A stretch of DNA of 64,000 bases from a virus. How positions within the stretch are numbered: the stretch's first letter is position 1; each line of letters begins with the position of its first letter. Below the pieces are notes generated by a model, which made no database searches, was not told where the DNA came from, and worked only from the letters and a program-made list of their open reading frames with translations. This document shows positions 3,001-53,557 of the stretch, piece by piece. The stretch lies in the IMG/VR virus record IMGVR_UViG_3300033388_005634; one strand, given 5' to 3'. A program made the translations under genes and the position numbers.

Positions 3001-3011
3001 TGTTTAGGCAT
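1..3011 (-). CDS. large fibre/baseplate-like virion protein, C-terminus beyond left window edge (>1003 codons)
   Basis: Own translation. The ATG at 3011-3009 shares its A with the TAA of the upstream gene (TAATG). The frame stays open to nt 1 (MPKQDLYHITGPFGVDRRDSAIVKRSPGILYELENYL...). It is absent from the ORF track because no stop lies in the window. Listed + ORFs 132-2699 are its antisense shadows. Function assigned only from size and position in the late operon. Confidence 0.6.
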   Translation of the reverse strand, partial: MPKQDLYHITGPFGVDRRDSAIVKRSPGILYELENYLIHNGNLEVREGITNELSTLDGTNITSLQVEDDVGYRILALHRYYGLTALEAELKEFYAAVDGASNATLRKWSGTQWNTLPLPPGITLTAGVQGNFEQLKDRTYYTNQKEPVLMIKKEDSQVYEAGIPDADPELEIAYMETKTEADHPPGADEWTFYTDGETNMVRHFLDGGFERHTEGDFGLTLEQSDFSAGKTLIGVYHLPATLNLEWFYQIDAGGGTVTTGTTDGVTLNDSAATFTTAHIGLQIENVTDGSTAVILQVNSTTQVITSELTGGTDNDWQDVVPDAYTMGSRSTLNDYIAIDIFRFTKIDIDEVAFELSSVAPDASGDFSKGFHVTIYTDSDMDHFDMIQRTMLAEWAMNPYSNKLFFGRFRKAWFIDIDPDNLDDWATINYIKIHIQSNAETTGSNPARITVDNIRLLKTPPLPSELSLQVATCDAIESWVRNIGGAAIENNYVYATEGVSCKVIPSGVTAKYDWAGTKDLSVYGEGTDVDGSDICVFDVCGDISALGTVVTVIKFYDTAGETAEGTFTVFGDLKNVQQRHIHKQEFETSSTVIEGTVRDFDWTSVDYMLVGNVGIPLNLNTFGILYIDHIRFQPASASKLINKFMPLDLIVADAFNRGIDHYFEEGGIVDTVSDWLFQAYANFTRQATGQGQLIFPEYTHGRYKIGDYSLASMQLQVDAGGAMTVTFNQNDDLTEYNDFNFNLDGFLFPKQENKTGNWMGIDWVEVSGTPTDEFSIWISTPDIRDIAKITFRFYANANASFEADTGVHTGGNSSRILIKTGGVAFTAALIGKRIRNENWVSGDTGNRWGIVGWVLPNRIGAWGMLWDTDDEFTIDTYGGKGFTFEKEGIGGKPVPDADNYYEYVLDTNTMFGSLGGIVKGYNKALEYPAENEENLIAVRELAKEYGLQRVYKEDDKDGWWQGILTWKRKDMIPHLKSDSPWSSLQCIAAHEIIVQASSERNAII

Positions 3012-3901
3012 TAGCTTCTCACCCTATGATGTTGTGAGTAAGTTGAAGGAGATATTGTCCTCCCCATGTATCCACGGACTAATTGACCAACCTGCTTCTT
3101 CGCACGAGCAAGCTCATTGATATAGAGAGTATCATAACGGTCAGACTTTGTTTTGGTTAGAGCAGCGCTATCAGCTTGATTGGCTTTGAGGTATGCTATG
3201 ATCGCAACTCGATAGATAATGAGATATGGGAATTCAGCAGCGATTACACTTTCGGTAGTGGGAGCAGCCATAGCAGTTTCTTTGTAGACATATGGGATTG
3301 TTCCAGCCCGATTGATCGCATAGGTATCATCAGCTGAAAAGACATCCCCTGTTCCACCAGCAAGAGTAACTGTGAGTTCTGTTGCACTTGTGATGGCGGT
3401 TATCAGGCCATTACTCCCATCTGTGATATTCCGGATTGAGTAGCCCACGTAATCACTTATGAAAGCAGCGGAACTGTCGATAAGAGTGGTGAGACCGGAT
3501 CCAGCTGTTGCGGTACCGGATGCCTGAACTTTTGGTGGTGGATAGAGTGAGAGCTTATCACGAAACCGGATGTAATAATGCTCGGGCTGATCGATACCAT
3601 CGGCAGTCAGGAAGTCGGGGTATTGAGTTTCTAACCATTTTATCCCACGTTTCTTGAGCTCTTTATTATTGAAGAATGGGAGGAGGAGAGGATGGAGTTT
3701 TATGAAATCGCTATCATAGGAATAGTCAGCCTGTTCTTCTACCCCGTGGAGGATCTGCTCCTGCCATGGGTAATTGAGATCTTTTGTTGCCTCGAACGAT
3801 GCGTCATTTGCCCAGTCTGTGAGCTCATCATCCTTGACAAAGTTTTCTCGTGGCTCTCTGATAATTGACCTGACTCTTTTTCTTATCTCGCTTAGTACCA
3901 T
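3011..3901 (-). CDS. virion structural protein, function unknown (296 aa)
   Basis: ORF track. TAATG stop/start overlap with the downstream fibre ORF. Shares a ~60-aa module (L-x-DS-x-A-x-F ... N-[IV]-TDGS ... L-x-GG) with that ORF. Confidence 0.55.
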   Translation of the reverse strand: MVLSEIRKRVRSIIREPRENFVKDDELTDWANDASFEATKDLNYPWQEQILHGVEEQADYSYDSDFIKLHPLLLPFFNNKELKKRGIKWLETQYPDFLTADGIDQPEHYYIRFRDKLSLYPPPKVQASGTATAGSGLTTLIDSSAAFISDYVGYSIRNITDGSNGLITAITSATELTVTLAGGTGDVFSADDTYAINRAGTIPYVYKETAMAAPTTESVIAAEFPYLIIYRVAIIAYLKANQADSAALTKTKSDRYDTLYINELARAKKQVGQLVRGYMGRTISPSTYSQHHRVRS

Positions 3902-3920
3902 TTTGCGCCTCCAAGAAGAA

Positions 3921-3969
3921 AAGAGGATAGAGAAAGCCTGTTTGAAGGTGAACTTGTCCCTATCCTCTT
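3921..3969 (-). terminator. long-loop hairpin with T-rich tail between late genes
   Basis: 10-bp inverted repeat AAGAGGATAG (3921-3930) / CTATCCTCTT (3960-3969) with a 29-nt loop. On the minus strand it is followed by TTCTTCTT. Not a canonical intrinsic terminator because the loop is large. Confidence 0.3.
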
Positions 3970-4015
3970 CGTTGTTAGTGGCTTTCGTTTAAGTTTGTTG
4001 TATAGGCTCTACTCC

Positions 4016-4981
4016 TTACGACATTGCAGGTGCGTCAATCTGAGCTGTACCGTTCTCACTAATCCAGTTATTAAGAACTCTTCCTGTTGATGCCTGGGCA
4101 ATAGCAGAAGCGGTATCTGCACAGATTCGGTTATCTATAACCATAACCCTTGCAGAATTTTCAACTTCGATACCTTCTCCTGTTACTCCAGTTGCAGCTT
4201 GTGCACTATCGATAACATTTCCTCTGATAATGGTATGGACAGCAGTATCGACGGCAACATTAAGGGTGATACCACTTAACTCTGCAAAGATGTCATTATA
4301 CTCGATTTTTGTGCCGATACAGAAATGATGACCATCACCAGTCGTCCCAGCTAAAGTACCGAGTTTAATCCCATACTGAAACTCACTAGCAGCTCCGTTC
4401 CATGTGCCAATATGGTTTCTCCTGATGATGCTATAATCCATGTGAGCATCCGTAGCTACGTCCGTTTCAGGACCAATTTGAAGCCCAGTGATACAGGCAG
4501 CAGCTTGCCCTGAAAAGTGACAGTCTTCGATGATGCTGTATCGCATATTGCCTAAATGAACAGCAGGCAAGGTTGGAGCACCAGAAGCCGCACTCATAAA
4601 GGTAATATTCTTGAACATAGCACCCGACATATCGCCTGTATAAGCAGTGGTGGTTCCAGGGTAGACCATAACCGCCTGCCACGGATGACCGGTATTGCAA
4701 CCAATCAACGATACGTTTGTCAAATTCCCCGTGAGGATTTCTGTATAATTACCGGGAGCAATGTAGATGATATCACCAAGGCCGCTTGTGTTGGCAATCT
4801 GGGTAGTAATAGCTTTTTGGATAGTTTTGAAGGCTTGAGTTGGAAGCAATCCACTATTCCCATCGCTTCCATTCGTTGTATCCACAAACCATATCGTGCC
4901 CAAAATTACACTATCTGCTGCTCCACCTGTTACTGGAACACCGAAACTCGTTATCCCGTTAGGGAAGTGGGTATAGCTCAT
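4016..4981 (-). CDS. right-handed parallel beta-helix (pectate-lyase-fold) protein, tailspike/depolymerase-like
   Basis: ORF track 4016-5011. I prefer the ATG at 4981 (MSYTHFPNG...) because AGGAGAAAG lies 7 nt upstream. Periodic beta-helix rungs: IIEDCHFSG, IIRRNHIG, IEYNDIF, IIRGNVID, VIDNRICAD. Confidence 0.55.
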   Translation of the reverse strand: MSYTHFPNGITSFGVPVTGGAADSVILGTIWFVDTTNGSDGNSGLLPTQAFKTIQKAITTQIANTSGLGDIIYIAPGNYTEILTGNLTNVSLIGCNTGHPWQAVMVYPGTTTAYTGDMSGAMFKNITFMSAASGAPTLPAVHLGNMRYSIIEDCHFSGQAAACITGLQIGPETDVATDAHMDYSIIRRNHIGTWNGAASEFQYGIKLGTLAGTTGDGHHFCIGTKIEYNDIFAELSGITLNVAVDTAVHTIIRGNVIDSAQAATGVTGEGIEVENSARVMVIDNRICADTASAIAQASTGRVLNNWISENGTAQIDAPAMS

Positions 4982-5077
4982 AATCTTTCTCCTAGCAATA
5001 GGAACACCCAAGTATAATGCTTGGCTGCCCGGGAGAATAAGTGGTGACTAGACCACCGCACTCCCGCTTACCCGTTG

Positions 5078-5293
5078 TTATTTGGCGTAATCGCCCCTTC
5101 TGTGCTCATCTTCCCCGTAAGGACGATCAAAGCATAAATGACAGTAATACTTTTCCTCATCACCTACTCTTACCATCTCATCGATCCACCACTGTTGCCC
5201 GCATCTTGCGCATGTCCTAGTCCGCTTACCTTGTGGATAAGGGATTGGGACGGATTCTGCATCTAACTTTTCTTTAGTATAATCAGTTCCCAT
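5078..5293 (-). CDS. small zinc-ribbon protein (71 aa)
   Basis: ORF track. CARCGQ...CHLCF gives two CxxC pairs. Overlaps the end of the upstream glycosyltransferase gene. Confidence 0.45.
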   Translation of the reverse strand: MGTDYTKEKLDAESVPIPYPQGKRTRTCARCGQQWWIDEMVRVGDEEKYYCHLCFDRPYGEDEHRRGDYAK

Positions 5294-6581
5294 GTGGTTG
5301 ACTTCCTATTGCAACAAGCAAAGGAGAACCTCCTCCTCCACCTATTAACCGTGGCGTTTGCTTTACTGTTACGTCAGAGAAAACCTTTTTCATAACTCCC
5401 TTAAGCGAACTGGCATCATAAACCCGCTGATGTTCAAGCTTTGACATATGCCCTATGTTCTCACTGGGAACACCAACAATCACCTTTCCCTTTTTTGTCT
5501 TCAGTAAAGATGCCAGCTTCTCAATAAAAGCAACATCATCTATCATGTGCTCCAGAAGATGCGAAGAGATAACGTGATCAAACATTTTCCCATCTACCTG
5601 ATGTGTCCTAAAGTCTGCTACCTCTCCATCAAACCCCCTCCTCTTAACCTCTTTGATAGCTGTTTGAGAAAAATCAAAGCCATAGCACGAGCAGTTCCTT
5701 TCCTTTTTCAACATAGTCATTAAAAAGCCGGGACCACATCCCACTTCAGCTACCGACGAACCCTTTGGTATTTGAGCGCAGATATATTCCCACTCACCGG
5801 GATAAACTCTCTTTAGCCCCTGCACTTTATTTGCAAAATGCCGCTCTTCCCAATACCCTGACTCACGAGTATCTTCCTTAGCTATCTTATAAGATACACC
5901 ATCTACATCTGCCGCATAGTACGATCTAACCCACAAATCGTTAACATGAACCGATCCGACATGATCGCACTGGACAAGAGTATCAACGTAGACTTTATAG
6001 CCAGCCTTCTTTGCATCTTCACAAAAAAGGATATCATGACCTTTTTGCCTCTCCCCCAGCTCCCGGTCCCACTTATCATAAAAGCAGGGGAACCTCATCT
6101 TTTCAAACACGTCCATGTCTACCATAAGGCACCCTATCCCACACCAGTCAACTTCAACGAGATGATCTTGATTGTCGGGAAAAGGTGAGTATTCTTCCTT
6201 CCATCCCTCTCCGGTACTACCAACATATTTAAACCTCTTTTTCTTCTTGACTTTCCAACCAGCTACCGGACTATAAGGAGGTTTCTTCAGATAATACGTA
6301 CCAGACACGATAGGAAGATCCCGATCAAGCAGTTTAGGGATCGTATCAAACGGGAACTCCATATCGATGTCAAGAAACAGTATCTTCTCACACTTCCACT
6401 TCCACGCTTCTTTAACTATAGTATTCAAGGAAGCAGACTTCACCGAAGCCTGCCCCCTGATTACTATATGCTGGTTAGGTTTTGCAAGCCCGATAAAGTT
6501 CCAGAAAAACGAGCTGTCTACTTTATCTTGGTTGTTACAAAGCCCAATACATATTTTACAGTCCTGCCATGCTTTCTTCAA
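5283..6581 (-). CDS. fusion protein: GT-A (family 2-like) glycosyltransferase + class I SAM-dependent methyltransferase
   Basis: N-terminal half has a DxD-type LFLDIDMEF motif and CGIGCLMVDMDVFEKMRFPCF, typical of GT2. C-terminal half has methyltransferase motif I VAEVGCGPGF and FDHVISSHLLEHM. Confidence 0.65.
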   Translation of the reverse strand: MKKAWQDCKICIGLCNNQDKVDSSFFWNFIGLAKPNQHIVIRGQASVKSASLNTIVKEAWKWKCEKILFLDIDMEFPFDTIPKLLDRDLPIVSGTYYLKKPPYSPVAGWKVKKKKRFKYVGSTGEGWKEEYSPFPDNQDHLVEVDWCGIGCLMVDMDVFEKMRFPCFYDKWDRELGERQKGHDILFCEDAKKAGYKVYVDTLVQCDHVGSVHVNDLWVRSYYAADVDGVSYKIAKEDTRESGYWEERHFANKVQGLKRVYPGEWEYICAQIPKGSSVAEVGCGPGFLMTMLKKERNCSCYGFDFSQTAIKEVKRRGFDGEVADFRTHQVDGKMFDHVISSHLLEHMIDDVAFIEKLASLLKTKKGKVIVGVPSENIGHMSKLEHQRVYDASSLKGVMKKVFSDVTVKQTPRLIGGGGGSPLLVAIGSQPHGN

Positions 6582-7259: not shown

Positions 7260-7952
7260 TTAAATCGTAGGGAGATAAGTAACCTTCCCACGAAAGTTTA
7301 AAAGCTTTGCCCTATTATAAAGAAAAGTTAGTCGCTCTAACAGTGGTGGAGTGTAGTTCCTGTAATTATTGTCTTTAATAATCTTTAGGTATTCCAACAA
7401 CACCAAAGCGTGTTCTTTTTTTATAATAAGGTACTCCTTAATTTGAGGCAAAACATGCCGTACTTGGTTGGGAGTTAATTTAAGACGATAAAGAGTTTTG
7501 TGTTTATTATTTTCCCTCTTTTCCTTCCCAATTCGTCCGTTTCCAAGCATATCTCTTACTTTGTTTATTACTTCAATATTTGTGTTACTCACTTCAAACC
7601 TCGAATGATAACTCATACCACCAGCATACGGAGATGTATAATTTTTGCCTATTCCAATAGTACCTTCTCCATCCCAAAATCCAGCGACATAAGCACATTC
7701 CACATCAGACATTATTCTATCTGTTTTTAGGTTATTCCCTTTTAAAGAACGAAAATATTTAGCTCTTTCAAGGTACTTTTCCCGATTGGCCTCATAGCGT
7801 TCTTGCTTCTTTTGAAGAATGAGTTCTCGTTTAAGATTATAATCATTCTTCCTTCTACATTCTCTTGAACAATAAAGCCGGTTCCAGTTTTCACCTTTTA
7901 CCTCAAATTCCTTTCCACATTTTTGATACTTGCACTTTCTTATTTCTTTCAT
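7260..7952 (-). CDS. free-standing LAGLIDADG homing endonuclease with N-terminal Cys4 zinc module
   Basis: Single LAGLIDADG motif YVAGFWDGEGTIGI followed by an I-CreI-like core (FEVSNTNIEVINKVRDMLGNG...YRLKLT). N-terminal CKYQKCG...YCSRECRRKN. Visibly more AT-rich than the flanking capsid genes (not computed). Confidence 0.75.
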   Translation of the reverse strand: MKEIRKCKYQKCGKEFEVKGENWNRLYCSRECRRKNDYNLKRELILQKKQERYEANREKYLERAKYFRSLKGNNLKTDRIMSDVECAYVAGFWDGEGTIGIGKNYTSPYAGGMSYHSRFEVSNTNIEVINKVRDMLGNGRIGKEKRENNKHKTLYRLKLTPNQVRHVLPQIKEYLIIKKEHALVLLEYLKIIKDNNYRNYTPPLLERLTFLYNRAKLLNFRGKVTYLPTI

Positions 7953-8049: not shown

Positions 8050-8979
8050 CTATCCACCGGAGGTTCCGTAAGTCCCCTTGTAGTCTGCCCATCCACATGA
8101 GTATCTCATATAGATGTAGTAGAGAAGGTTATCAGTCAGGTCTTCTGTTGTCATCTTCGTTCGGGGTTTCTCCCTCCAAACAAACTTCACCTGATGATCG
8201 CTATTGGCAGCCAAGAGGAACCAAGCGTCTGCATCAACACTACCCAACCAGTAAGGCCAGACAACCATGTTGATTTCAGTTGCCTTGCGAAGTGCGTTGA
8301 TAGCGTTGTTTGCATCTTCAGGGTACTTCTCAGACTGGAGCAGCTCGATAGCTTTCTGCTGGAGCTGATGAGGGATCAGGAGAGTCTTTGGAGACTTAAC
8401 CCACGGAAGACCGGATTCATTTGTCACTTCATAGAAGGCGTTTACTGCTGCCCACAGAGAAGTGGCGGTGAGGTCTGCATCAGTTGATGGCCTGTTTGCC
8501 TGAGTTCCACCGGTTTTGAGATCATGAGTGGTATCAAACAGGTACTCAGCAGACGAACGGTTAGAAGATTGATAAGTGGGAACTGCTGCAAACCCGTTAG
8601 TGAATATACGGGATGCGTGGTAATTGATGGTAGCTTCAGCTGACTCTCTCATTGAGCCCGGGAATTGACGAATTACACCATATCTCTCATCGGCCTGAGC
8701 CTCATGAGTGATTGTGGAGTACATCCCATACGCAATGTGTTCCAGCTCGGTCCACCATGCCTCACCAGCATCAACGCTGGTATAAGCAGCACCCTCATTC
8801 TTTTGGGTTAACAATGGATATCCTTTGATGGTCATATATTTCTTGAACTGACTATCGTGGGACTCCATGTTAAAAACCTGTGAGATTACGCTGTCTGGCT
8901 GAGCAAATTCCCATGGAGTGAATAAGACTTCATCCAGTCCAGCTTTCATCAGGTTTTCGTTATTGGCACGAATAATCAT
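8050..8979 (-). CDS. major capsid protein (HK97-fold type, Mu gpT-like by eye)
   Basis: 309 aa. Lies directly downstream of two scaffold-like ORFs and the portal. Size and sequence character are typical of major head proteins. No search run. Confidence 0.6.
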   Translation of the reverse strand: MIIRANNENLMKAGLDEVLFTPWEFAQPDSVISQVFNMESHDSQFKKYMTIKGYPLLTQKNEGAAYTSVDAGEAWWTELEHIAYGMYSTITHEAQADERYGVIRQFPGSMRESAEATINYHASRIFTNGFAAVPTYQSSNRSSAEYLFDTTHDLKTGGTQANRPSTDADLTATSLWAAVNAFYEVTNESGLPWVKSPKTLLIPHQLQQKAIELLQSEKYPEDANNAINALRKATEINMVVWPYWLGSVDADAWFLLAANSDHQVKFVWREKPRTKMTTEDLTDNLLYYIYMRYSCGWADYKGTYGTSGG

Positions 8980-13261: not shown

Positions 13262-14790
13262 CTCCCTGTAAATTTATTCATGCCTACTACCTGCCGTTGC
13301 GGCCGTCTCCTCTTGTGATGCTCTCTGGCCTCCTGCTCTCTTAGTGACCACATTGCCCAGTTGAGTGAGTATACCGCATCATCATGATACTTTGTCCCGG
13401 GCTTATGCCCAAACTTGGGAACGGCCCCATCCATCTGATGTTCAAACTCTTTCATCTGCTTAACGATATATGGGAGTCTCCCACCATTCTTACCGTTCTT
13501 CTGATCGTATGTGCTGGGGAGTCCTTCCGGAAGAGCAAGCTGTTCCTGATCGACTATCTGATGGAAGCGGGTAAAAGAACTCACTTGGTTCTTATCGACT
13601 GGATGGACGATCTCTGCCGGGATCCCTTTTTCAACTGTCCACTGGAAGAGGTCAGCCGCTTGATATACCTCAAGGACGACATTCTGGAGCCTGTACCTGT
13701 TGTGATCTGCAAGGATCGCTTCTTTGATTAATTTCTCACTGGAGTTCTCCATGATCTCCTGATTAAGGAGCACCCAGTATTCTTCCCCTCGTGTCTTTCC
13801 TTTTGCCACTGTTGACCAGAAAGTATCGTCCCCATGTTTGGAATATGGAAGCGCACGATCAAGCCCACCTCCAATCGCAAACTTTGTCCCAAGCCTTAAT
13901 TCCCAGTCCATCAGCTCTTCACGACGAACAGGGGCTGTATAGTTCTCTCCATTTACAACTGCCGCCCCTATTTTCTTAGGATCAAATAACTTGCGAGTTG
14001 AGAATATCCAATCGTTATCATGATAGAGAGCGTATTGAGCTGGGGTAAGCTGGGCTTTGCGGGAGTCGAGCCAGCGTTTTGTGACTAGAGGTGAGGGGTT
14101 ATACCCTCTGATATAGAGGAAGTAGAGAGACGGATCGAGTTTCTGTTCGTGAACTTGATAGAGATGGTAGAGGATGTTAAGTTGAGAAGATACTTGGGAA
14201 GGAAGGATAATCTGGCCATCACGAGGGCCTGCTTGAGAAGCAAGGATATTGTAGATCCCCTCGTCATCTGGCGCTGCGTGGATCTCATCTACTACTGCTA
14301 GATCAATCCCATATCCCCACGCTGCTGCTTTTGATGATGAGAGGACAGTTACGATACTATTTGTCTTTGGGAGTCTTATCTCTTTATCTAGGATGTTTTC
14401 AGATCCTACTTTCTTTAAGAGTTCTGGTGAGTAGCGTATCATGGACTTGAACGTATCGAACACTACTGATGACGCTTGATCCTTGGAATTGGCAGCAACG
14501 ACCCCCTGCACGTTAAAATGAGTAATAAACCGCCACGTCACAATGAGGGATGCAGTAAACGTCTTGCCGTTCTGCTTCGGGATGCATATAGCAGCTGTCC
14601 CATACTTAAACTTCCCGGATGGCAGCTTTCTCGTAATTTCCCGAATGATTTCAGCTTGATATGACCATTCACCTTCCAACTTGACCTTAATTACCTCCTG
14701 AGCGGATGATGACGGGATCCAAACGAGATCATTGACGAAAGATACGATATCCTCTTTGTAGTGTGCCCATTTTGCGTCTGATATAGCCAT
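13258..14790 (-). CDS. terL: terminase large subunit
   Basis: 510 aa. Walker A-like IPKQNGKT, Walker B DLAVVDEIH, and a C-terminal RNaseH-type nuclease signature YHDDAVYSL. Confidence 0.85.
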   Translation of the reverse strand: MAISDAKWAHYKEDIVSFVNDLVWIPSSSAQEVIKVKLEGEWSYQAEIIREITRKLPSGKFKYGTAAICIPKQNGKTFTASLIVTWRFITHFNVQGVVAANSKDQASSVVFDTFKSMIRYSPELLKKVGSENILDKEIRLPKTNSIVTVLSSSKAAAWGYGIDLAVVDEIHAAPDDEGIYNILASQAGPRDGQIILPSQVSSQLNILYHLYQVHEQKLDPSLYFLYIRGYNPSPLVTKRWLDSRKAQLTPAQYALYHDNDWIFSTRKLFDPKKIGAAVVNGENYTAPVRREELMDWELRLGTKFAIGGGLDRALPYSKHGDDTFWSTVAKGKTRGEEYWVLLNQEIMENSSEKLIKEAILADHNRYRLQNVVLEVYQAADLFQWTVEKGIPAEIVHPVDKNQVSSFTRFHQIVDQEQLALPEGLPSTYDQKNGKNGGRLPYIVKQMKEFEHQMDGAVPKFGHKPGTKYHDDAVYSLNWAMWSLREQEAREHHKRRRPQRQVVGMNKFTGR

Positions 14791-14797
14791 TTGACCT

Positions 14798-14983
14798 CTA
14801 TTTTAACAACTTCTTGAGCTTCTTCTGCTTTCTTAACATTTCCTGCTGACTGCGGTATAGGCTCGTTCCCTTTCTCGCCGCTGGGATTGGTTTCCCTGCT
14901 CTTTTTCGTTCTGCCAGCATTCCATGTACGCTCCTTTTGAGTTCTTCAGTCTCTCTTCGTGCTTTTCTCACTGATTTTGCCAT
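14798..14983 (-). CDS. small basic protein (61 aa)
   Basis: Track ORF 14798-15067 trimmed to the ATG at 14983 (MAKSVRKARRE...). That ATG has AAGGAGAG upstream. The longer version overlaps the next micro-ORF. Confidence 0.4.
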   Translation of the reverse strand: MAKSVRKARRETEELKRSVHGMLAERKRAGKPIPAARKGTSLYRSQQEMLRKQKKLKKLLK

Positions 14984-14993
14984 GACTCTCTCC

Positions 14994-15149
14994 TTATTTC
15001 TTCTCAAAAGCCAAATCTCTTTTACCTGAGCAAAAGTTGTACCCACTTGCCCAGCGGGTAAAGCCAAACTGTTTCAAAATGTTCTCTATGGCAACGTCTA
15101 ACTCTACATTTACCTTCTCACCATCATAAACAACTCTTAAATCTTTCAT
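14994..15149 (-). CDS. hypothetical 51-aa protein
   Basis: Own translation MKDLRVVYDGEKVNVELDVAIENILKQFGFTRWASGYNFCSGKRDLAFEKK. GGGGGAG Shine-Dalgarno. ATGA overlap with the upstream micro-ORF. Below the track length cutoff. Confidence 0.4.
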   Translation of the reverse strand: MKDLRVVYDGEKVNVELDVAIENILKQFGFTRWASGYNFCSGKRDLAFEKK

Positions 15150-15293: not shown

Positions 15294-15788
15294 CTATCTC
15301 CCTGTTTTCACTTTTCCCGTATGCTTAACTTTCCCCATAACTGCCCTCATATACCCAGCTTCCTCCTCATCTTCCTTTTCGACATCTATCAACTCCCTGA
15401 ATTGCTTAAGTTTCTTATCAAGGAGCGTTTGGAGCCCCACAAATCCTTTTGTTGTGATCTCAGACAGATATTTCGTCCCAAACTTGTTCGTCATGATCAC
15501 ATTGGCCCCTATATCCTCGCTGATATAGGTAGTTATATACTTACTTAAGATCAGGGTCTCACAGATCCCATCGAGTACTATCATCTGGGTCTGCGTGATA
15601 TCTCCTCCTGCCTCTACTATCAAGCTTTCCCGTACTCCTTTTACATACTGATCAATCTTCCTATAGTTCGCTGGCAGGCTACCAGTCCCCATATACGAAG
15701 AAAGAACTTCGGGCACCTTGCTTGCCACCAGTTCTTTTTGATAATGTGCTACTGCCTGCTCTTTAATATCCTTTCCATTCCCTGACAT
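15294..15788 (-). CDS. terminase small subunit candidate (164 aa)
   Basis: First gene of the late operon, upstream of terL. Track ORF 15294-15911 trimmed to the ATG at 15788 (MSGNGKDIKEQ...), which has GGGAGGCAAGAAT upstream. The N-terminal extension looks non-coding. Confidence 0.4.
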   Translation of the reverse strand: MSGNGKDIKEQAVAHYQKELVASKVPEVLSSYMGTGSLPANYRKIDQYVKGVRESLIVEAGGDITQTQMIVLDGICETLILSKYITTYISEDIGANVIMTNKFGTKYLSEITTKGFVGLQTLLDKKLKQFRELIDVEKEDEEEAGYMRAVMGKVKHTGKVKTGR

Positions 15789-15921
15789 ATTCTTGCCTCC
15801 CTTTTGCCCGCTCCTCCCATTCCGCCTATAAAGAGGGTGGGAGAGAGGCTGGGATCGGCAACCCCCCTCCCGGGCGCAAGAAACGAGAAATGAGAGAATA
15901 GCGGAGCTCATTCCACTTCCT

Positions 15922-15949
15922 ACTATACCACAAGATATTGCCTTGTCAA
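15922..15949 (-). promoter_or_regulatory. sigma70-type promoter of the late (minus-strand) operon
   Basis: Minus strand reads TTGACA (15949-15944), a 16-nt spacer, then TATAGT (15927-15922). Confidence 0.5.
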
Positions 15950-15975
15950 ATTTTTAACGCACGAAATGTGGGAAA

Positions 15976-16220
15976 GTGTCAAAAAAGAGGCAGATGGGGA
16001 CAAAAAAGCGCCTAACCTTATTAAGTGGAAAATAGGATCCCAAAATACAACCAGCAGGGGCAAAAAAGTTCTGGCTGGGGACAAAAAAGTGCCATATTGC
16101 CCGTTTTCGGCCTAAAATGTCCCAGATATACGCTAAATGCCCGTTTTTAGGCCACTTTTAGCCTAAGTTGGGACAAAAAGCCTCGAAAAGGGCCCTAATT
16201 AGCCTAAAATGTCCCAGATA
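15976..16220. repeat. interleaved short direct repeats next to the small-terminase-like gene
   Basis: Five copies of G(G/T)G(G/T)(A)CAAAAA(A)G start at 15976, 15996, 16057, 16077 and 16168. Two exact 19-mers GCCTAAAATGTCCCAGATA lie at 16110-16128 and 16202-16220. Two TGCCCGTTTT(T)NGGCC lie at 16098 and 16138. Confidence 0.7.
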
Positions 16221-47116: not shown

Positions 47117-50100
47117 TTATGGTGGCATGTAGAGCTCCAGCTGCCATGGTAACGTTGACCCGTCCATCTTGCGCTTAAACATAAGCTCTCTTTCCATCTT
47201 TGGCTGCCGTCTCAATCCTAAGAAGATCCTTGCCTGTCTTTGCTTCTCATACTCCTCTCTTATCTGCTTTCTCTCCTCATCTGTCTTTGCTCTCTCAATC
47301 ATTACTTCCAGCCGGTTCTGTTGTGTCCCGGGATCAATCAGCATGTTGACAAGGCGCTCACCATAGAGTTGAGACATAATCCCGGCCTTTGCTTTCTTAT
47401 CAAGCTCAGGTTTGAATAGTTTGGGATCTATCTGGCCCATCATGTCATACATCTCAACAAGCGTATTGGTAAACTTATCTGACTGGACAAACTCCTGATT
47501 TGTCCCACGAAAACCAATGTAGGTTCGTTCAATATCATTGAAATACTGGAGAGCTTGGTTGGATACCCATTTGATCCGGGCTGTGTCATCCATCGTGTAG
47601 ACCTTGCCATTCCCAAGCCTGATCTCTCCTTTAGGTGTCATATCAAATATCCCTATTGCCTCTTTCCCTATAAAGTTATCAAGGAATCTTCTGAATGCAA
47701 TGTCAATAGGCTGTTTCTTTTGCTGAGTCTTGATAATGTTGGCTCCCAAGAATGGTACCATTGTCTTGACAAAGAACTGAGCTCCTTCCCATTTCCTCTG
47801 CATGGGATTGAGGCTGTTATACTCAGCTGAGTATATGGGGACTTTATCATATGGATCTCTCCGATCCTTCAGGCCGATATAGAACCTGATAAGAGGAGCC
47901 ATGAGATACGCTACTCCACGGTACTCCTGAACTCCCCATTCCTTTATCGTCCGAAGAGCTGCATCTCTGGGAGTCCATGGTTTACCGTTTGCAGGATTGA
48001 TCTCCCCTCTGTACACCCGTGAGGCCATCTCTGTAGCAATAGTGAAGATCTTAGTACCGATCAGAACATCCTGTGGGAGCTGAAGTGCCCAAGTTCTTGC
48101 ATCTCCAGCAGGAGTCTCTTCTATGTCAAAGTGGATCTTGTTCCTTAACCAGTCTGGTCGTCGAAGCTCCCGTTGTCTGGCCTCCTCATTCCTGTTATTC
48201 CATGCCTGAGCAGCAAGAGGAGCGGCAAACATACCGACAAGAGCCTTCCCTTTATTCTTCCACATCCACCTGTGAACCAGTCGGGAGTTATGGAAGTACC
48301 ATGTGTTGCCGGTAATGAATATATTATTGTTCCTTCTGGCCAGCCAGTAACCAGTACCAGTTTTGGGACACCAAACAGTACCTTTATAATCACTCTCTTT
48401 CACCAGCCTTATGTTACTTCTCTTGATAGCTCTGGCAGTATTGTGCTGGAGAAATACCCCTTTGGTACTTGTTCTACTTGCTATCCCTGCTGTTGTGCAA
48501 AGCATCTGGAACAGGTCCTGCTGTTCCTTGTTTTGTCTGACAAATATCTTCCATCTTCCATTACTCTTATCCTTACTCCCATCTCCTCTTAACATGTGTT
48601 CGATAAGTATTCTTTTCTGGTGTGAAGATAGCATTACAATAAGCTCAGGCGTAAGTTTTCTCACCGGTTGGATCCTAGTGATAATCTTAGCATCCTCTTT
48701 AGCTATCCTAAACCTGTACTTCTTAAGCTTTCCATAACTACTTGCTTGAGGTTTCCCAATGGACTCAGCAAAGTTGATGTCGAGCCCTTTTAACAAACGC
48801 CTGATTTCTTTTACATATCCGGGCTTAGACTGATAGATAACGACAGCTCCCCCCTTCTGCAACGTTGCATCGGTAAGGTACCATCCTAAAAGCTTAATCA
48901 GATTATCTTCGGCTAACAGTCCTATTTGTTCCTGTGGATTAGCTACAATAGGGATCTTACTGTCCAGAGGAAGGGTGAGAAGCTCTTCTGCCTCTACCAC
49001 CTTATACTTTCCATCCCGATTTTGTATCACAGTCGAGTGACAGGGAGTAGTAAACGCATTGCACGATCTGTTTGTTACCTCTATCATCGTATCGTCATAA
49101 CCATGACTCGTGAATACTCCTTCTAACGTTGACCATTGGCAGATACCTTTCTCTAAGTTGAAACTCCAGATCCTATCCTTCTTAGCTTTCAGCTCATCAT
49201 ACCTCTTCCAGCCTCTATCAGTAAGGCATTCTGTCTTGTCATCAACACAGCCGAATGGAGTAAGCATCCCTCGACCTATTCTTCGGAACCCTTTGGATAC
49301 GGCAGCGTAATCAACGAGGACCTCACGAGCAATCTTACCAAGTGCTGCTTTCTGATCCAGCCCTTTTGTGTCAATCCATGAGTGGGCTTTGATCATTTCA
49401 GAAGCTGTCCCCTCTTTCATGGATTTCAGAAGAGTTGATGCATAAGCTGTACGATTGATCCCTTCTCTCATCTGGGATACGGTCATAGATTTATCAAGGA
49501 TCATCCGGAGCGGGTTTTTGGATCCTTTTATTTGTTTGGGTAGCTCTGTCATAAAGAACGATGCACCAAGGATATCTTCACTCAGGATGAACTCATGGAG
49601 TTCTTTAAGATGACCGGTATGAGGTTTGGCCCGTGCCTCATTCATAAGGTATTTGAGTGATGTCTCCATCTCGATAAGGAGTCTGGTCGGCTGTGGGTGC
49701 TGGATAGCCACCATGAACGTGTCACCGATCAGATTGTTCATGTTGAATGACGGGTAGTGAGAGAGGATTGCCATGTTCTTCCAGTAGCCGGTAATGAGGT
49801 TCATACGGTGGACAAGAGGGCTGCCACTCTCTGAAAATGACTTGAAGGATCGGAAGATGTCAGCTGGGATCAGGCTAACATTCTTGTACCTGCCTAGTGC
49901 CATCTGCCCCTCATTTGTCATGTAGATCGTCCGGCTGAACGGCTGGTCTGGTGTGTATGACCAGTGATCTCCTTTACCTTTGAATGATGGATCCACTTTG
50001 GCAAGCTCTTCCTCTGTCCAGAGCCTGCCGGGCTTGGGGGTGTTGACAACTTCTATCTCTTTCATGATTCCTTCAGGGTAAGCTTTGCTCTTCACTAATC

Positions 50101-53100
50101 TCTCATGTGTTCTGGATCCGAAGAGAGCTATTTTTTGCTTCTTGCTCATTGTTGGGATGATGTCGTACTTGGCTGTCTCCCTTATGATAAAGTCCTCGAC
50201 CATGTTAGTGTGTTCTACCTTGAGTAGATGGCCAAGAAGAGTATCTGCATCCTTTACAATCTCCTTAACGGTACCTTTAGCTTTCTGTTTGAATGATCTG
50301 AAGGGAGTGCGGAGACGGGTGGGGATGCCAACAGTATAAGCCCATTCAGGAGTATAGACACCTACCGCATGAGGAGCGTAATCTTCGATAAACTGGCCTT
50401 CATACCCTGTCTTGGGATCGGGGCCCCTAAGCACTCCACGTCTCACGAGATCTGCCTGAACCTCATTTGTCACCGCTCTCCATTCATCAGCTGCACGGAG
50501 GGTTTCTGCTGATGCTGATGTTTCCAGCGTATCCCTTATTTTTGTTGCTTCGGGAAGTACAAGTTCAGGATTCCCCCTACCTGCCTTTTGTCTGCCTACC
50601 TCATCCCTTGCATAGATCAGCTCAACTACATTGTAGACGTTATCCTTTTTCATATCCTTGAAGATCCTGCCGGCATATCCCTCTTTACTATAGACTTTAT
50701 GGCGAGCTCTATCTAATGCCGCTACCATATGAACCCGGACATCGTTCACATAGTCTTTGGGAAGATGAGGATAGAATCGGAGGGGATCTACGATCTCATC
50801 AATAACAAACTCTTTTGCTCCTTTTGCTTTGAGGTAGGTGGACTCGAAGAACTTGGGAGATTTGATAACATCTCTTATCCCTTCATACATGGTTTGGAAT
50901 CCACCGGCTTCAAGGGTAGGACCGGGGAAGCCCTTGGGGAAGCGAGAAGCGAGAACGTTGTGAGGAGTATAGCCACCTTTCATCTTGGTGAAGGTTGGAT
51001 CAAATGGCATCAAGTATCCTTGAAGCTTGCCATCAACAGAGAACGTAATGGGCAGACCTTCTCCGGGCAGACCTTCTCCGGGTTTTGGTATCTCCCACTG
51101 AACCTTTGGGCCATATTTCTGACGGATGTAATCAAAGTAGTTATGGGAGACGAAGAAGCCGTTCTCCTTGTTCATGATAGCCACACCATGTTCTGTGTCA
51201 AACACAGCCTTGGCAGGCTTGTGCGTATCTTTCCCTTTCCATCCATCTACAATCTCGGCTATATCTTTTGTTGCTTCTTCAAACACCAGCCTTTTAATCT
51301 TTGGAATAGGAGCGCCTTCCCTGAACTCTACTATATGCCCGTCGCTGAAAAAGGTTCGCTTGCCAACTTTCCCTCTTAAGAGATAGGGGTTCCCTCCCTC
51401 TTTGATTGTCTGTGTCTTCGGTTGCCACACTTCCTTTTCTGGAGGAGTCTTAAACTTGGTATCCTTGTCGAAGATCCTGATGAACGTATCACCAGCATCT
51501 ACATCAACTTTAGGTCTGGTACCTGATGCTTCAACGATCGGACGTTCCTTTCTTGGTGGTTCTGGTGGCCCTATCTTACCTTCCTTAAGCCTTCCAATCT
51601 TTTTCGCAAACGTCTCAAGCGCATAGTTCGTGTTTGGTATGGTAAATGTTGTGCCTTCATGCTCTACCTTGATCCATGTTGGCTGATCTTTTGGGACATC
51701 TGAGAGAGTATCTGGAGCTCGTTTGGAGAGTGTTATGAACTCTTTAGCTACGTCCTTCTTGTCGCCTGATTTGACTATGTGGAACTCTTCCTTCGGGATC
51801 TCTACTAACTTAGCCGGTGGTTTGGTAGGCTCAGGAGCAGCTGGCTTCACTCCCTCTACTGTTTGTTGGGCAAATGCCTCCTCTCCCTCTTTCCAGAGCT
51901 TGACAATCTCCCCGCCAGCTTTCTTTGTCCCGATATAGTTCTCAAGCATCTTGGCCTTGACAGCTTCTGTGGTAAAGAGTTCTTCTTTAAGCATGAGCGT
52001 AGACTTGGTATAGGGGGAGTTAAATGACCAGCGGTTCTTTCCTTTAACAACAGTAGGTGTGGTGACAGCTACTTCCTTTCCTTCCTTTATTGTGATCCCT
52101 CCCCACATTGCTCCAGCCTCTTCAGTTGCTGCTTTCATCTCGGCCTTAGTCCGGGGTTTAGGGATTTCAGCTACTCTATATGCCTCAACTTTCTTAGCTA
52201 ACTCTGCCCTTATCCTCTCTGGAGTAACTTCAGATAGTGGGATCTCGATCGTGGTGCCAGTAGTCTTCTCATTAAAGGTAATGTAATCTGGGATAACACC
52301 CTCTTTGCCCTTCCGTATTCCGATATACTGCCCGCCTGCTTCCTCGACAACATCCTTGGCAAGCTGCTTTCCCTTAACAGGTATTTTCCTCTCGAGGGCA
52401 GGTTTCTTTACTTCCTCAGCTGGTACTGGGGGCTTCTTTACAGCTGGTGCTTTTCTCTCGAGAGGAATTTGTTCCCTCGTCTTGAGATTCTCTGTTACCT
52501 CTTCCTTGATATTCTTCAGGAAGGTAGTTGTCTTATCCTTGATCTTCTTCGGTAGCTTATCCTGCGCACTCTTGATATCTGCTTCTATATTCTTAACCGT
52601 TATTCTCTCTTCTGGTAGCCCTCTATATTTAGAAACTCCTCTCTTGAACGTTTGTGTTCCTATCCTCGCTGTTTTGTGAGCAACGATATACGTTCCAAGG
52701 TGAATGACATCCTCTACTATCTTACGCAAGAATGGTTGAGTTTCCGGAACGATGTTTGAGGATGACCATGTAGCAAACTGCTGGACTTTCTCAAACGGCC
52801 ACGAGAGGGTTTCTGTCGCCTCCATTCCAAGCTTTGTCCTTGGCATATAGGAGAGTTCGGCTGCTATGGTGTCTTGAACTTCTGTAACAGCCTCTGCCTT
52901 CTCCTTTGATGTCAGGGGTTCACGAGGAGCTGGCTGTGGGGGAACTCCAACTTGAGGGAAGGCTGTGGGGATCGTCCCTTCGAGATATCCACCGAGCATA
53001 GATGGGAGGAACGCAGCCATCCCTGTTCCGAATGCTCCTGCTACATCTCCAAGAGCTGCTAACTGTTCATGAGCTGGTTGCATTAGGGGGAGTTGCTCTG

Positions 53101-53557
53101 ATAGAAGAGGAGCAGGTTCAGTAGGAGCAGCTTCAGGAGCAGGCTGTAAAGCTCCCGGTTGTGGAAATGCTGTTTGCTGGAGATCGGGAGGTACAGATTG
53201 CTGGTAAAGCTGTTCTAATCCAGAAGGAGGGGTAATGGTACCTGTTTCAGGAGAAAGTGGTTCAGGAGCCATTGTCGGGTCTCCCAGCTGTGCTCCCGCA
53301 CCCAAACCAGCTCCTTCTTGCTGCTGCTGCTTGATAATGTCCTGCTCTGCCTTCTCCGCCTCCTTATTGATCCGTTCCAGCTCCTTATTCATCATACCCT
53401 GATACTGGAAATAGCTCTCTGCGAAGGCTGACCGTTTATATTCCTGTGGCTTAAACGTGTCAACTTTTTGACTATCTACCGGAGGAGGCTTGCCACCCTT
53501 TTGACTACGGAAGGCCCTGTAACCTTTTAGAAACTCATTTCGGTCTGCCATTGTCAT
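47117..53557 (-). CDS. giant virion-associated protein (2146 aa including a 315-aa intein)
   Basis: Single uninterrupted ORF. N-terminal Q/P/A-rich region and a Lys/Glu-rich middle. No catalytic motif recognised by eye. ATGA overlap with the upstream gene. Confidence 0.7.
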   Translation of the reverse strand: MTMADRNEFLKGYRAFRSQKGGKPPPVDSQKVDTFKPQEYKRSAFAESYFQYQGMMNKELERINKEAEKAEQDIIKQQQQEGAGLGAGAQLGDPTMAPEPLSPETGTITPPSGLEQLYQQSVPPDLQQTAFPQPGALQPAPEAAPTEPAPLLSEQLPLMQPAHEQLAALGDVAGAFGTGMAAFLPSMLGGYLEGTIPTAFPQVGVPPQPAPREPLTSKEKAEAVTEVQDTIAAELSYMPRTKLGMEATETLSWPFEKVQQFATWSSSNIVPETQPFLRKIVEDVIHLGTYIVAHKTARIGTQTFKRGVSKYRGLPEERITVKNIEADIKSAQDKLPKKIKDKTTTFLKNIKEEVTENLKTREQIPLERKAPAVKKPPVPAEEVKKPALERKIPVKGKQLAKDVVEEAGGQYIGIRKGKEGVIPDYITFNEKTTGTTIEIPLSEVTPERIRAELAKKVEAYRVAEIPKPRTKAEMKAATEEAGAMWGGITIKEGKEVAVTTPTVVKGKNRWSFNSPYTKSTLMLKEELFTTEAVKAKMLENYIGTKKAGGEIVKLWKEGEEAFAQQTVEGVKPAAPEPTKPPAKLVEIPKEEFHIVKSGDKKDVAKEFITLSKRAPDTLSDVPKDQPTWIKVEHEGTTFTIPNTNYALETFAKKIGRLKEGKIGPPEPPRKERPIVEASGTRPKVDVDAGDTFIRIFDKDTKFKTPPEKEVWQPKTQTIKEGGNPYLLRGKVGKRTFFSDGHIVEFREGAPIPKIKRLVFEEATKDIAEIVDGWKGKDTHKPAKAVFDTEHGVAIMNKENGFFVSHNYFDYIRQKYGPKVQWEIPKPGEGLPGEGLPITFSVDGKLQGYLMPFDPTFTKMKGGYTPHNVLASRFPKGFPGPTLEAGGFQTMYEGIRDVIKSPKFFESTYLKAKGAKEFVIDEIVDPLRFYPHLPKDYVNDVRVHMVAALDRARHKVYSKEGYAGRIFKDMKKDNVYNVVELIYARDEVGRQKAGRGNPELVLPEATKIRDTLETSASAETLRAADEWRAVTNEVQADLVRRGVLRGPDPKTGYEGQFIEDYAPHAVGVYTPEWAYTVGIPTRLRTPFRSFKQKAKGTVKEIVKDADTLLGHLLKVEHTNMVEDFIIRETAKYDIIPTMSKKQKIALFGSRTHERLVKSKAYPEGIMKEIEVVNTPKPGRLWTEEELAKVDPSFKGKGDHWSYTPDQPFSRTIYMTNEGQMALGRYKNVSLIPADIFRSFKSFSESGSPLVHRMNLITGYWKNMAILSHYPSFNMNNLIGDTFMVAIQHPQPTRLLIEMETSLKYLMNEARAKPHTGHLKELHEFILSEDILGASFFMTELPKQIKGSKNPLRMILDKSMTVSQMREGINRTAYASTLLKSMKEGTASEMIKAHSWIDTKGLDQKAALGKIAREVLVDYAAVSKGFRRIGRGMLTPFGCVDDKTECLTDRGWKRYDELKAKKDRIWSFNLEKGICQWSTLEGVFTSHGYDDTMIEVTNRSCNAFTTPCHSTVIQNRDGKYKVVEAEELLTLPLDSKIPIVANPQEQIGLLAEDNLIKLLGWYLTDATLQKGGAVVIYQSKPGYVKEIRRLLKGLDINFAESIGKPQASSYGKLKKYRFRIAKEDAKIITRIQPVRKLTPELIVMLSSHQKRILIEHMLRGDGSKDKSNGRWKIFVRQNKEQQDLFQMLCTTAGIASRTSTKGVFLQHNTARAIKRSNIRLVKESDYKGTVWCPKTGTGYWLARRNNNIFITGNTWYFHNSRLVHRWMWKNKGKALVGMFAAPLAAQAWNNRNEEARQRELRRPDWLRNKIHFDIEETPAGDARTWALQLPQDVLIGTKIFTIATEMASRVYRGEINPANGKPWTPRDAALRTIKEWGVQEYRGVAYLMAPLIRFYIGLKDRRDPYDKVPIYSAEYNSLNPMQRKWEGAQFFVKTMVPFLGANIIKTQQKKQPIDIAFRRFLDNFIGKEAIGIFDMTPKGEIRLGNGKVYTMDDTARIKWVSNQALQYFNDIERTYIGFRGTNQEFVQSDKFTNTLVEMYDMMGQIDPKLFKPELDKKAKAGIMSQLYGERLVNMLIDPGTQQNRLEVMIERAKTDEERKQIREEYEKQRQARIFLGLRRQPKMERELMFKRKMDGSTLPWQLELYMPP
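48305..49249 (-). mobile_element. intein with LAGLIDADG homing-endonuclease domain inside the giant protein
   Basis: Block A CVDDKTECLTDRG (Cys1 codon at 49249-49247). Block B TTPCHSTV (TxxH). Endonuclease blocks LLGWYLTDATL and LIEHMLRGDGS. Block F GTVWCPKTGTGYWLA. Block G NNIFITGN followed by +1 Thr (Asn codon at 48307-48305). The penultimate His is replaced by Gly. The length is exactly 945 nt. Confidence 0.8.

Follow-up and report, generated by a model that had tools for sequence, protein, structure and literature searches.

The window analyzed here is a 64,000-nt stretch of viral DNA (IMG/VR record IMGVR_UViG_3300033388_005634) that by its appearance covers the greater part of the genome of an uncultured phage lineage. 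On its minus strand lies a giant gene interrupted in frame by a candidate intein (Table 1). The giant gene is the last one of a virion/lysis block that includes a beta-helix tailspike-like gene and an Amidase_3 gene, in line with an earlier prediction, made from the nucleotide sequence alone, which had placed the element within a giant protein of the virion block. The same end-of-block position of the giant gene was found in three other loci (L001, L002 and L012).

Translation of the element gave 315 sense codons without a stop and in frame with the host open reading frame (ORF), so that its length is exactly 945 nt, as originally predicted. The reading starts with CVDDKTECLT, continues through TTPCH, LLGWYLTDATL and MLRGDGS, and closes with GTVWCPKTGTGYWLARRNNNIFITGN, the last residues being NIFITGN. 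All of the splicing blocks that had been described as readable, namely Cys1, the TxxH motif (T68/H71), two LAGLIDADG motifs, block F, the terminal Asn315 and a Thr at the +1 position of the C-extein, were located on the minus strand, and the penultimate residue was indeed Gly (Gly314) instead of His. Removal of the 315 aa from the 2146-aa ORF yielded the expected 1831-aa extein with the junction RGMLTPFG|TWYFHNSRL, the native residues being ...RRIGRGMLTPFG before the junction and TWYFHNSRLV after it. The GC content of the intein was 42.4%, as compared with 47.4% for the host gene. A six-frame scan of the window with a hidden Markov model (HMM) of the intein family found no further intein besides this one. 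A precise insertion, the complete set of catalytic residues, the predicted fold, an empty site and a sporadic distribution were all observed, as described below. We consider it very likely from these sequence features and the structural model that the segment is a genuine, bifunctional and probably still mobile intein, residing in a host protein that is likely of a virion-associated, polyvalent type.

Table 1. Coordinates of the intein, its sequence motifs and the host gene in the window.
Feature	Position	Strand	Description
Precursor ORF	47117..53557	minus	2146 aa, 243 kDa, stop codon included; spliced product 1831 aa, 207 kDa (predicted)
N-extein, precursor residues 1-1436	49250..53557	minus	Residues 1 to ~917 variable, of low complexity; conserved module from residue 918 (window position 50806)
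Extein motif just upstream of the insertion	49250..49345	minus	ALGKIAREVLVDYAAVSKGFRRIGRGMLTPFG; R, D-Y and P-F 95-100% conserved; homing-site region
Intein	48305..49249	minus	315 aa, 36 kDa, pI 9.6; HINT splicing domain split by a LAGLIDADG homing-endonuclease domain
Cys1 (block A:1)	49247..49249	minus	Predicted first nucleophile
Block B, T68-P-C-H71 (TxxH)	49037..49048	minus	T68 and H71 invariant in alignments of intein homologues
LAGLIDADG homing-endonuclease domain, residues ~101-276	48422..48949	minus	Sub-threshold Pfam match; profile and Foldseek matches
LAGLIDADG motif 1, LLGWYLTDATL	48860-48901	minus	Acidic residue D127
LAGLIDADG motif 2, LIEHMLRGDGS	48572-48610	minus	Acidic residue D223
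Block F, TVWCPKTGTGYWLARR	48332..48379	minus	Cys294 at F:4 (48368-48370)
Block G, NIFITGN	48305..48325	minus	Thr313 (G:5), Gly314 (G:6, penultimate), Asn315 (G:7)
+1 residue of the C-extein	48302-48304	minus	Thr
C-extein, 395 aa, from Thr+1	47120..48304	minus	C-terminal part of the conserved module
Upstream gene, 397 aa	53554..54747	minus	Translationally coupled, its stop overlapping the start ATG of the giant gene (ATGA); syntenic and 70% identical in L012

When the 315 aa were used alone as a query, nine proteins were retrieved with E values from 4e-32 to 1e-13, each at 100% query coverage and in unrelated hosts, including N6/N4 DNA methylases, NrdD, a P22-type portal and a C1 peptidase. In the alignment of these homologues, the similarity begins exactly at Cys1 and ends exactly at Asn315, after which a Ser or Thr follows. 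A tblastn search of 50,697 phage records with the whole 2146-aa protein matched 165 records, solely via residues ~1435-1752, and the matched genes include mycobacteriophage methylases, Gordonia phage portals, and PolI, RecD-like and ribonucleotide reductase (RNR) beta genes. One of them, the portal gene of Gordonia phage Woes (gp8), is annotated in its GenBank record as 'contains intein', and Bobi gp73 has been catalogued as a DNMT-2 intein (Kelley et al. 2016, Table S2; PMC5050341). The window intein is of the same family as the mycobacteriophage DNMT-2 inteins (Bobi gp73, RedBird gp75 and Akhila gp67) and the Gordonia portal inteins (Woes gp8 and Belphegor gp9), which it matched over the full length with E values of 1e-12 to 1e-22 by tblastn and of 1e-51 to 1e-61 with the HMM. 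The signature Cys1...TxxH...VWC...TGN|S/T and the LAGLIDADG domain are common to all of them, whereas the window intein is just 26-27% identical to these elements and differs from them in host gene, insertion site and phage lineage, which here is uncultured. As an element, the intein is ordinary, since its LAGLIDADG family has already been catalogued in actinobacteriophage methylase and portal genes.

The profile of the intein family matched, by sequence, the solved AceL NrdHF, RecA, DnaB and DnaX inteins and also the LAGLIDADG enzymes PI-PkoII and I-Tsp061I. An AlphaFold2 (AF2) model of the intein built on the family alignment was confident across both domains, with a predicted local distance difference test score (pLDDT) of 88.6 and a predicted template-modeling score (pTM) of 0.88. 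In a Foldseek search of the PDB with this model, TliVMA ranked first (1e-16), followed by PhoVMA, PI-PfuI and PI-SceI (E values from 1e-16 to 1e-9), and the central domain matched the homing endonucleases I-DmoI and I-SceI with E values of about 1e-5 to 1e-6. The endonuclease-containing inteins TliVMA (7qsu), PhoVMA (7qst), PI-PfuI (1dq3) and PI-SceI (1vde) have the HINT plus LAGLIDADG architecture in common with the window intein, with template-modeling (TM) scores of 0.6-0.66 normalized by query length at an identity of just 8-15%. They are larger (360-540 aa, as compared with 315 aa) and reside in archaeal or yeast ATPase, polymerase and RNR genes, unlike the intein examined here.

Relatives lacking the intein gave a clear view of the empty site. 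The spliced C-terminal 951 aa retrieved seven homologues at 34-43% identity, all seven without the 315 aa and reading RGxxxPF[G/A]|[T/S]WY across the site. In an IMG/VR scan, the closest relative found was L012, which is syntenic with the window and 81% identical over the conserved extein module described below (914 aa aligned); the gene upstream of its giant gene is 70% identical to the 397-aa gene of the window. The L012 orthologue (1982 aa) is unbroken at the junction, reading RRIGRGMLTPFGTWYFHNSRLVHRWMWKNKGK, with 12 and 20 residues identical to the window on the two sides and a gap-free codon alignment. The DNA is 83-86% identical within 30-60 nt on each side, and the empty-site sequence is GGGATGCTCACTCCGTTTGGCACGTGGTATTTCCATAACTCC. 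Since L012 reads through the junction and its DNA aligns codon for codon, the 315 aa are an insertion and not a domain of the protein family. Among the 150 best relatives of the module, 35 further family proteins contain a contiguous PF[GASC][TSC]W motif. Alignment of intein-less homologues had been proposed as a check of the original prediction, with a conserved integral domain as the result that would speak against an intein; all of these relatives were uninterrupted and showed a clean empty site.

The sole intein carrier among the same 150 relatives was P0039 (1888 aa), which has a 314-aa intein of the same family (HMM E value of 5e-90) at the identical site, PFG|CVDEKTECLT...FLTGN|TWYF. 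The two inteins are 51% identical, as compared with 36-42% for the flanking exteins. Such a scattered occurrence at a single site among divergent hosts, together with an endonuclease that appears intact, is the pattern expected of a homing element. A possible third occurrence was found in L060 (IMGVR_UViG_3300025009_000151; 1397-5605, plus strand), where an intein of the family sits at KTYLFDYSELTPFEQKVMRNVIPFY|...|TWLRKN, reproducing the D-Y-x16-P-F-x|T-W spacing of the window site (LFDY-x16-IPFY|TWL). The L060 host (~1100 aa) is otherwise unrecognized by the extein HMM, and hhalign of the extein family against the spliced L060 protein aligned the junction motif alone, with an E value of 0.047 and a probability of 1%. 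This host could be a remote relative within the extein superfamily. As a separate observation, the contig of P0039 (L106) encodes Transposase_20 and ParB_N proteins (14154-15002 and 15700-15988) downstream of the giant gene, suggesting a temperate or plasmid-like phage.

To describe the family as a whole, we compiled 81 unique inteins from the database matches, 8 GenBank phage examples and 79 IMG/VR examples. The catalytic positions were conserved as follows: Cys at A:1 in 80/81, Thr at B:7 in 78/81, His at B:10 and Cys at F:4 in all 81, Thr at G:5 in 75/81, Gly at the penultimate G:6 in 80/81 and Asn at G:7 in 80/81. Trp was present at B:12 in 29 of the 81. The +1 residue was Thr or Ser in 57 of 62 inteins, and Thr, Ser or Cys in every case read. 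The acidic residue of LAGLIDADG motif 1 (Glu/Asp) was retained in 76/81 and that of motif 2 (Asp) in 79/81. By its sequence, the window intein is a member of this large phage clade, which numbers 169 sequences in IMG/VR and is characterized by Cys1, Cys F:4, Thr G:5, Gly G:6 and Ser/Thr+1. A penultimate His is usual in inteins, and it is not obligatory. The penultimate Gly, to which the original prediction had drawn attention, is, judging from the family alignment, a fixed and ordinary trait of the clade. Gly, Lys or Ser at this position has been reported for phage class 1 inteins (Kelley et al., PMC5050341), and the class 1 intein in the recombination directionality factor (RDF) of phage Bethlehem (gp51), which shares the penultimate Gly with the window intein, splices completely, its G316H mutant being slower (PMC5050341). 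The host of the Bethlehem intein is a metallophosphoesterase-type RDF, unlike the giant protein of the window.

We infer from the residues and the modeled fold that the intein splices, cleaves DNA and follows the class 1 pathway. The giant gene would be translated as a 243-kDa precursor, in which the HINT domain would splice itself out. Cys1 is predicted to perform the N-S acyl shift and Asn315 to cyclize, and an O-N shift would restore the peptide bond between Gly1436 and Thr. The products would be the mature protein (207 kDa) and the excised intein (36 kDa), and the predicted tryptic peptide across the spliced junction is GMLTPFGTWYFHNSR. During co-infection, alleles without the intein are the predicted target of the LAGLIDADG endonuclease (D127/D223), with the cut at ACTCCGTTTGGC|ACGTGGTAT, and repair of the cut allele would copy the element in (homing).

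The family alignment also revealed a feature missed in the original prediction, an invariant Cys in the 'VWCP' of block F. Cys294 and the terminal Asn are 21 residues apart, exactly as in the class 3 prototypes MP-Be DnaB (Cys320/Asn341; Tori et al. 2010, PMC2807308) and Msm DnaB-1 (Cys118/Asn139), which places Cys294 at F:4, the position of the class 3 nucleophile, and Thr313 at G:5. A 38-column profile of blocks F and G matched no intein among PDB sequences, and the F:4 assignment thus rests on the spacing to the published prototypes. With these positions so placed, the window intein holds the 'CT' of the class 3 WCT triplet (Cys294 and Thr313) and Thr+1, whereas B:12 is occupied by Thr73 instead of Trp. 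It has Cys F:4, Thr G:5, Ser/Thr+1 and the association with phages in common with class 3 inteins (MP-Be DnaB, Msm DnaB-1 and Mch DnaB1), and is unlike them in the Thr at B:12, in the penultimate Gly in place of His, and in having Cys1 where class 3 inteins have a non-nucleophilic residue 1. In our view, the combination of a block F Cys with a retained Cys1 is chemically more interesting than the penultimate Gly.

These residues raise the question of whether the same intein uses a class 3-like or hybrid route, in which the N-terminal scissile bond is attacked by Cys294, or the N-extein passes from Cys1 to Cys294 before reaching Thr+1, leaving Cys1 dispensable or auxiliary. Cys F:4 is as strictly kept as His B:10, Thr G:5 and Ser/Thr+1 are prevalent (75/81 and 57/62), the Cys-Asn spacing equals that of the prototypes, and Trp B:12 completes the WCT triplet in the 29 inteins that have it. 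The only family member lacking Cys1, P0008 (a 545-aa protein with a C1-peptidase domain; intein at residues 96-418), combines Tyr1 with Trp B:12, Cys F:4, Thr G:5 and Ser+1, a complete class 3 signature; this single metagenomic sequence is either a class 3-type derivative within the Cys1 clade or the result of a single-base error from TGT to TAT. Moreover, Ser or Cys is the first residue in 3 of 37 WCT inteins (Tori et al. 2010, PMC2807308). However, the retention of Cys1 in 80 of 81 inteins argues that it is needed, the window intein has Thr at B:12, a position where class 3 inteins, when tested, require Trp, Cys at F:4 is also known from class 1 inteins, which form a polyphyletic set (PMC3196547), and the F:4 position was itself assigned by motif spacing, with no solved intein matched by the block F/G profile. 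We therefore regard a class 3-like route as rather unlikely. Since Cys1 is almost never lost in the family, the class 1 pathway is judged most likely for the window intein. A more speculative idea, which we hold only tentatively, is that the clade forms a functional bridge between classes 1 and 3, through a thioester relay from Cys1 to Cys F:4 to Thr+1 or through interchangeable nucleophiles. If true, such a bridge would contradict the published argument that class 3 cannot have arisen stepwise from class 1 (PMC7664689). With Cys1, Cys F:4, Thr G:5 and Gly G:6 together, the family is a natural test bed for the origin of class 3 splicing, and a small, well-folded 315-aa intein with Thr+1 may be of practical interest in protein engineering.

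Two other explanations would deny the segment the role of an active, mobile intein. A HINT domain of the bacterial intein-like (BIL) type could, as the virion matures, cleave the giant protein without religation, giving an N-terminal piece of ~160 kDa and a C-terminal one of ~45 kDa. Proteolytic processing is frequent among polyvalent and other giant phage proteins (PMC5512222), there is no penultimate His, and ligation is a prediction from sequence. On the other hand, the terminal Asn and the Thr+1 nucleophile are both there, unlike in BIL domains, and the apparently intact homing endonuclease and sporadic distribution mark a selfish insertion rather than a domain of the family. Furthermore, more than 40 relatives without the intein have this site unbroken and highly conserved, suggesting that the mature protein needs that peptide bond, and we consider autoprocessing of this kind very improbable. 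Only slightly less improbable is a decaying or inactive relic, or an element fixed and immobile with a dead endonuclease, its precursor being non-functional or working unspliced. Some family members do have degenerate LAGLIDADG motifs (LR756508, PTm1 and a Vibrio phage), and motif 1 of the window intein reads D-A in place of the usual E/D-G. Nevertheless, the frame is open across all 315 codons, every family-invariant residue is kept, both metal-binding acids included, and the AF2 model is confident in both domains. In comparison with the P0039 intein, conservation is no lower in the endonuclease region than in the N-terminal splicing region (50% and 47% identity, respectively). The active, bifunctional intein thus remains the preferred interpretation, and the following results weigh against it. 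As a single sequence, the intein matched LAGLIDADG_3 alone in the Pfam scan, at 20.8 bits and hence below the cut-off of 22.5; the NCBIfam scan gave no match, and the PDB sequence search gave no relevant one, just a spurious RelB. The comparison with intein profiles that the original prediction had called for was therefore below threshold in the Pfam single-sequence scan, negative in that of NCBIfam and positive for the family profile against solved inteins, and the case for an intein is built on homologues, profiles and the predicted structure, which agree with one another and with the empty site on a full-size LAGLIDADG intein. In addition, the evidence for recent mobility is modest, given the small GC gap and the small excess of intein over extein identity with P0039. 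The absence of the penultimate His and the replacement of the usual Asp at F:4 by Cys also mean that the chemistry may not be that of a textbook class 1 intein.

The original prediction had assumed that inteins sit in replication or packaging enzymes, and had taken this as a hint that the giant protein may be an enzyme. To learn which genes harbor the family, 52 distinct intein precursor proteins from IMG/VR were scanned with Pfam. Portal proteins of the P22, SPP1, SU10, Mu and P23-45 types accounted for 17 of the 52 hosts, N6/N4 methylases for 8 and family A polymerases for 2, with single matches to NrdD, Prim-Pol, a ResIII helicase, a C5 methylase, Metallophos, a siphovirus Gp37-like tail protein and ART-PolyVal. 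Tape-measure, minor-capsid and baseplate-like intein hosts have been reported in actinobacteriophages (2025 survey, bioRxiv 10.1101/2025.01.02.630785). The premise therefore fails for this family; with portals and other virion proteins among the hosts, an intein in a non-enzymatic virion protein is not exceptional and says little on whether the host is an enzyme. No catalytic domain was detectable in the giant protein by Pfam, NCBIfam and PHROG scans, and an enzymatic role finds no support in the results here. The same intein family recurs in other giant polyvalent-type proteins at sites unlike that of the window. Two such proteins, both truncated by the edge of the locus at ~2000 aa or more, are encoded by L090 (5-5950, plus strand), with an ART-PolyVal domain and the intein at TQGLYH|..|SGNKPN, and by L035 (53-5803, plus strand), with a GNAT domain and the intein at ETQFGY|..|TKADSM. 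In the paper that introduced polyvalent proteins (Iyer et al. 2017, PMC5512222), inteins are never mentioned (0 occurrences).

The conserved part of the extein is a module of ~860 aa that invariably forms the C-terminal end of proteins of 1000-3967 aa, whose N-termini vary. Searching 1.84 billion representative proteins with the module profile gave 626 matches at E <= 1e-3, of which 198 were at E <= 1e-30, and the window protein had no identical entry in the protein collection searched by exact-sequence look-up. Judging from these profile searches, the module defines a large metagenome-only family and is not a described domain. Polyvalent proteins have their genes beside those of the virion, and it has been proposed that they are packaged and injected (Iyer et al. 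2017, PMC5512222); like them, the window protein is giant and is encoded beside the virion late genes. Taken together, sixteen of the largest relatives contain ART-PolyVal, a Strawberry-notch-type helicase (AAA_34 plus Helicase_C_4), Zeta toxin, cpYpsA and ResIII/DEAD domains. Because this repertoire is that of polyvalent proteins, and given the position of the gene and a hint from BFVD, where the top matches of the module were 'Large polyvalent protein associated domain' proteins (E value of 3e-12), we favor, with moderate confidence and on comparative grounds, the view that the extein is a virion-associated giant protein of the polyvalent type, which may be delivered into the host cell together with the DNA. 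Several observations count against such a role. The BFVD matches have TM-scores of just ~0.1-0.2 and are taken as a hint only. Outside the intein, the giant protein gave no match in Pfam and NCBIfam scans or in a PDB-sequence profile search, and the whole protein, three sub-segments and two homologues gave none in PHROGs even at E <= 1. The AF2 model of the module was poor (pLDDT 65, pTM 0.41), and Foldseek found no match for it in the PDB at E <= 0.001. Several effector domains are expected of a polyvalent protein; they were found just in the larger relatives and, unlike in polyvalent proteins, neither an effector domain nor a Pfam large polyvalent protein-associated domain (LPD) was detected in the window protein.

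Other insertions in family members (P0035, P0055 and others) were considered as inteins and rejected. That of P0035 (residues ~973-1164), lying inside the conserved module, contains a zincin-like HExxH motif, LAHEIGHQLDF, and another, TLHEIGHNVAD, occurs in the N-terminal region of P0010 upstream of the module. Pfam confirmed neither, and both recall the processing metallopeptidases of polyvalent proteins. A C-terminal extension of P0014 appeared lysozyme/SLT-like by eye, was likewise not confirmed by Pfam, and was dropped as evidence.

To assess conservation at the insertion site, 111 family sequences were aligned to the module profile. The junction lies two residues past a Pro (100%) and a Phe (97%), and 20 residues past an R (95%)-x4-D (97%)-Y (100%) motif. 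Directly upstream of the junction is GLDQKAALGKIAREVLVDYAA, the 21-aa segment with the highest conservation in the entire module, and the segment holding the junction itself ranks fifth among non-overlapping segments. Thr+1 is the native family residue at the site (69%). The near-invariant P-F and R-x4-D-Y and the adjacency to the best-conserved stretch support the original suggestion that the insertion site is functionally critical. Inteins persist where their imprecise loss is lethal, and the intein thereby flags ALGKIAREvlvDY-x16-PF|TW as a starting point for mutagenesis. That it marks R-x4-D-Y-x16-P-F-x-[T/S]-W as the functional core of the ~860-aa module is a possibility we would put forward with considerable reserve. 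The intein is the first recognizable feature in a giant, metagenome-only family of 626 representatives without a Pfam, PHROG or PDB match, and its main use lies in marking the most conserved motif of these uncharacterized proteins.

With regard to the rest of the genome, the plus strand holds replication genes and the virion genes of the minus strand fall into two groups, one at 3-16 kb (TerL, an SU10-type portal, capsid and an SU10-type adaptor) and one at 47-63 kb (a 993-aa protein, Amidase_3, the beta-helix tailspike-like protein and the giant protein). This split would fit a circularly permuted or wrapped assembly. A tblastn search with the portal of the window against the 50,697 phage records gave no match, and no tRNA genes were found in the 64-kb window. 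A second, independent selfish element was noticed in the head-gene block, where a free-standing LAGLIDADG homing-endonuclease ORF (7260-7952, minus strand, 230 aa; Pfam LAGLIDADG_1 at 2e-7 and LAGLIDADG_3 at 1.6e-6) immediately follows the major capsid gene (8050-8979) and has no relationship to the intein endonuclease (BLASTP E value of 0.25). A 432-aa protein encoded at 5283-6581 (minus strand) has a C-terminal class I S-adenosylmethionine (SAM)-methyltransferase domain (Methyltransf_11/23/25, E value of about 1e-11), and its location in the head/adaptor block is unusual for such an enzyme. Finally, two neighboring ORFs on the plus strand (34814-35650 and 36047-37447) gave weak matches to dockerin type I, below the Pfam cut-off (E values of 7e-3 and 3e-4), the latter with an additional faint match to Peptidase_M64. 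These dockerin-like ORFs are a possible hint that the host has surface machinery of the cellulosome type.

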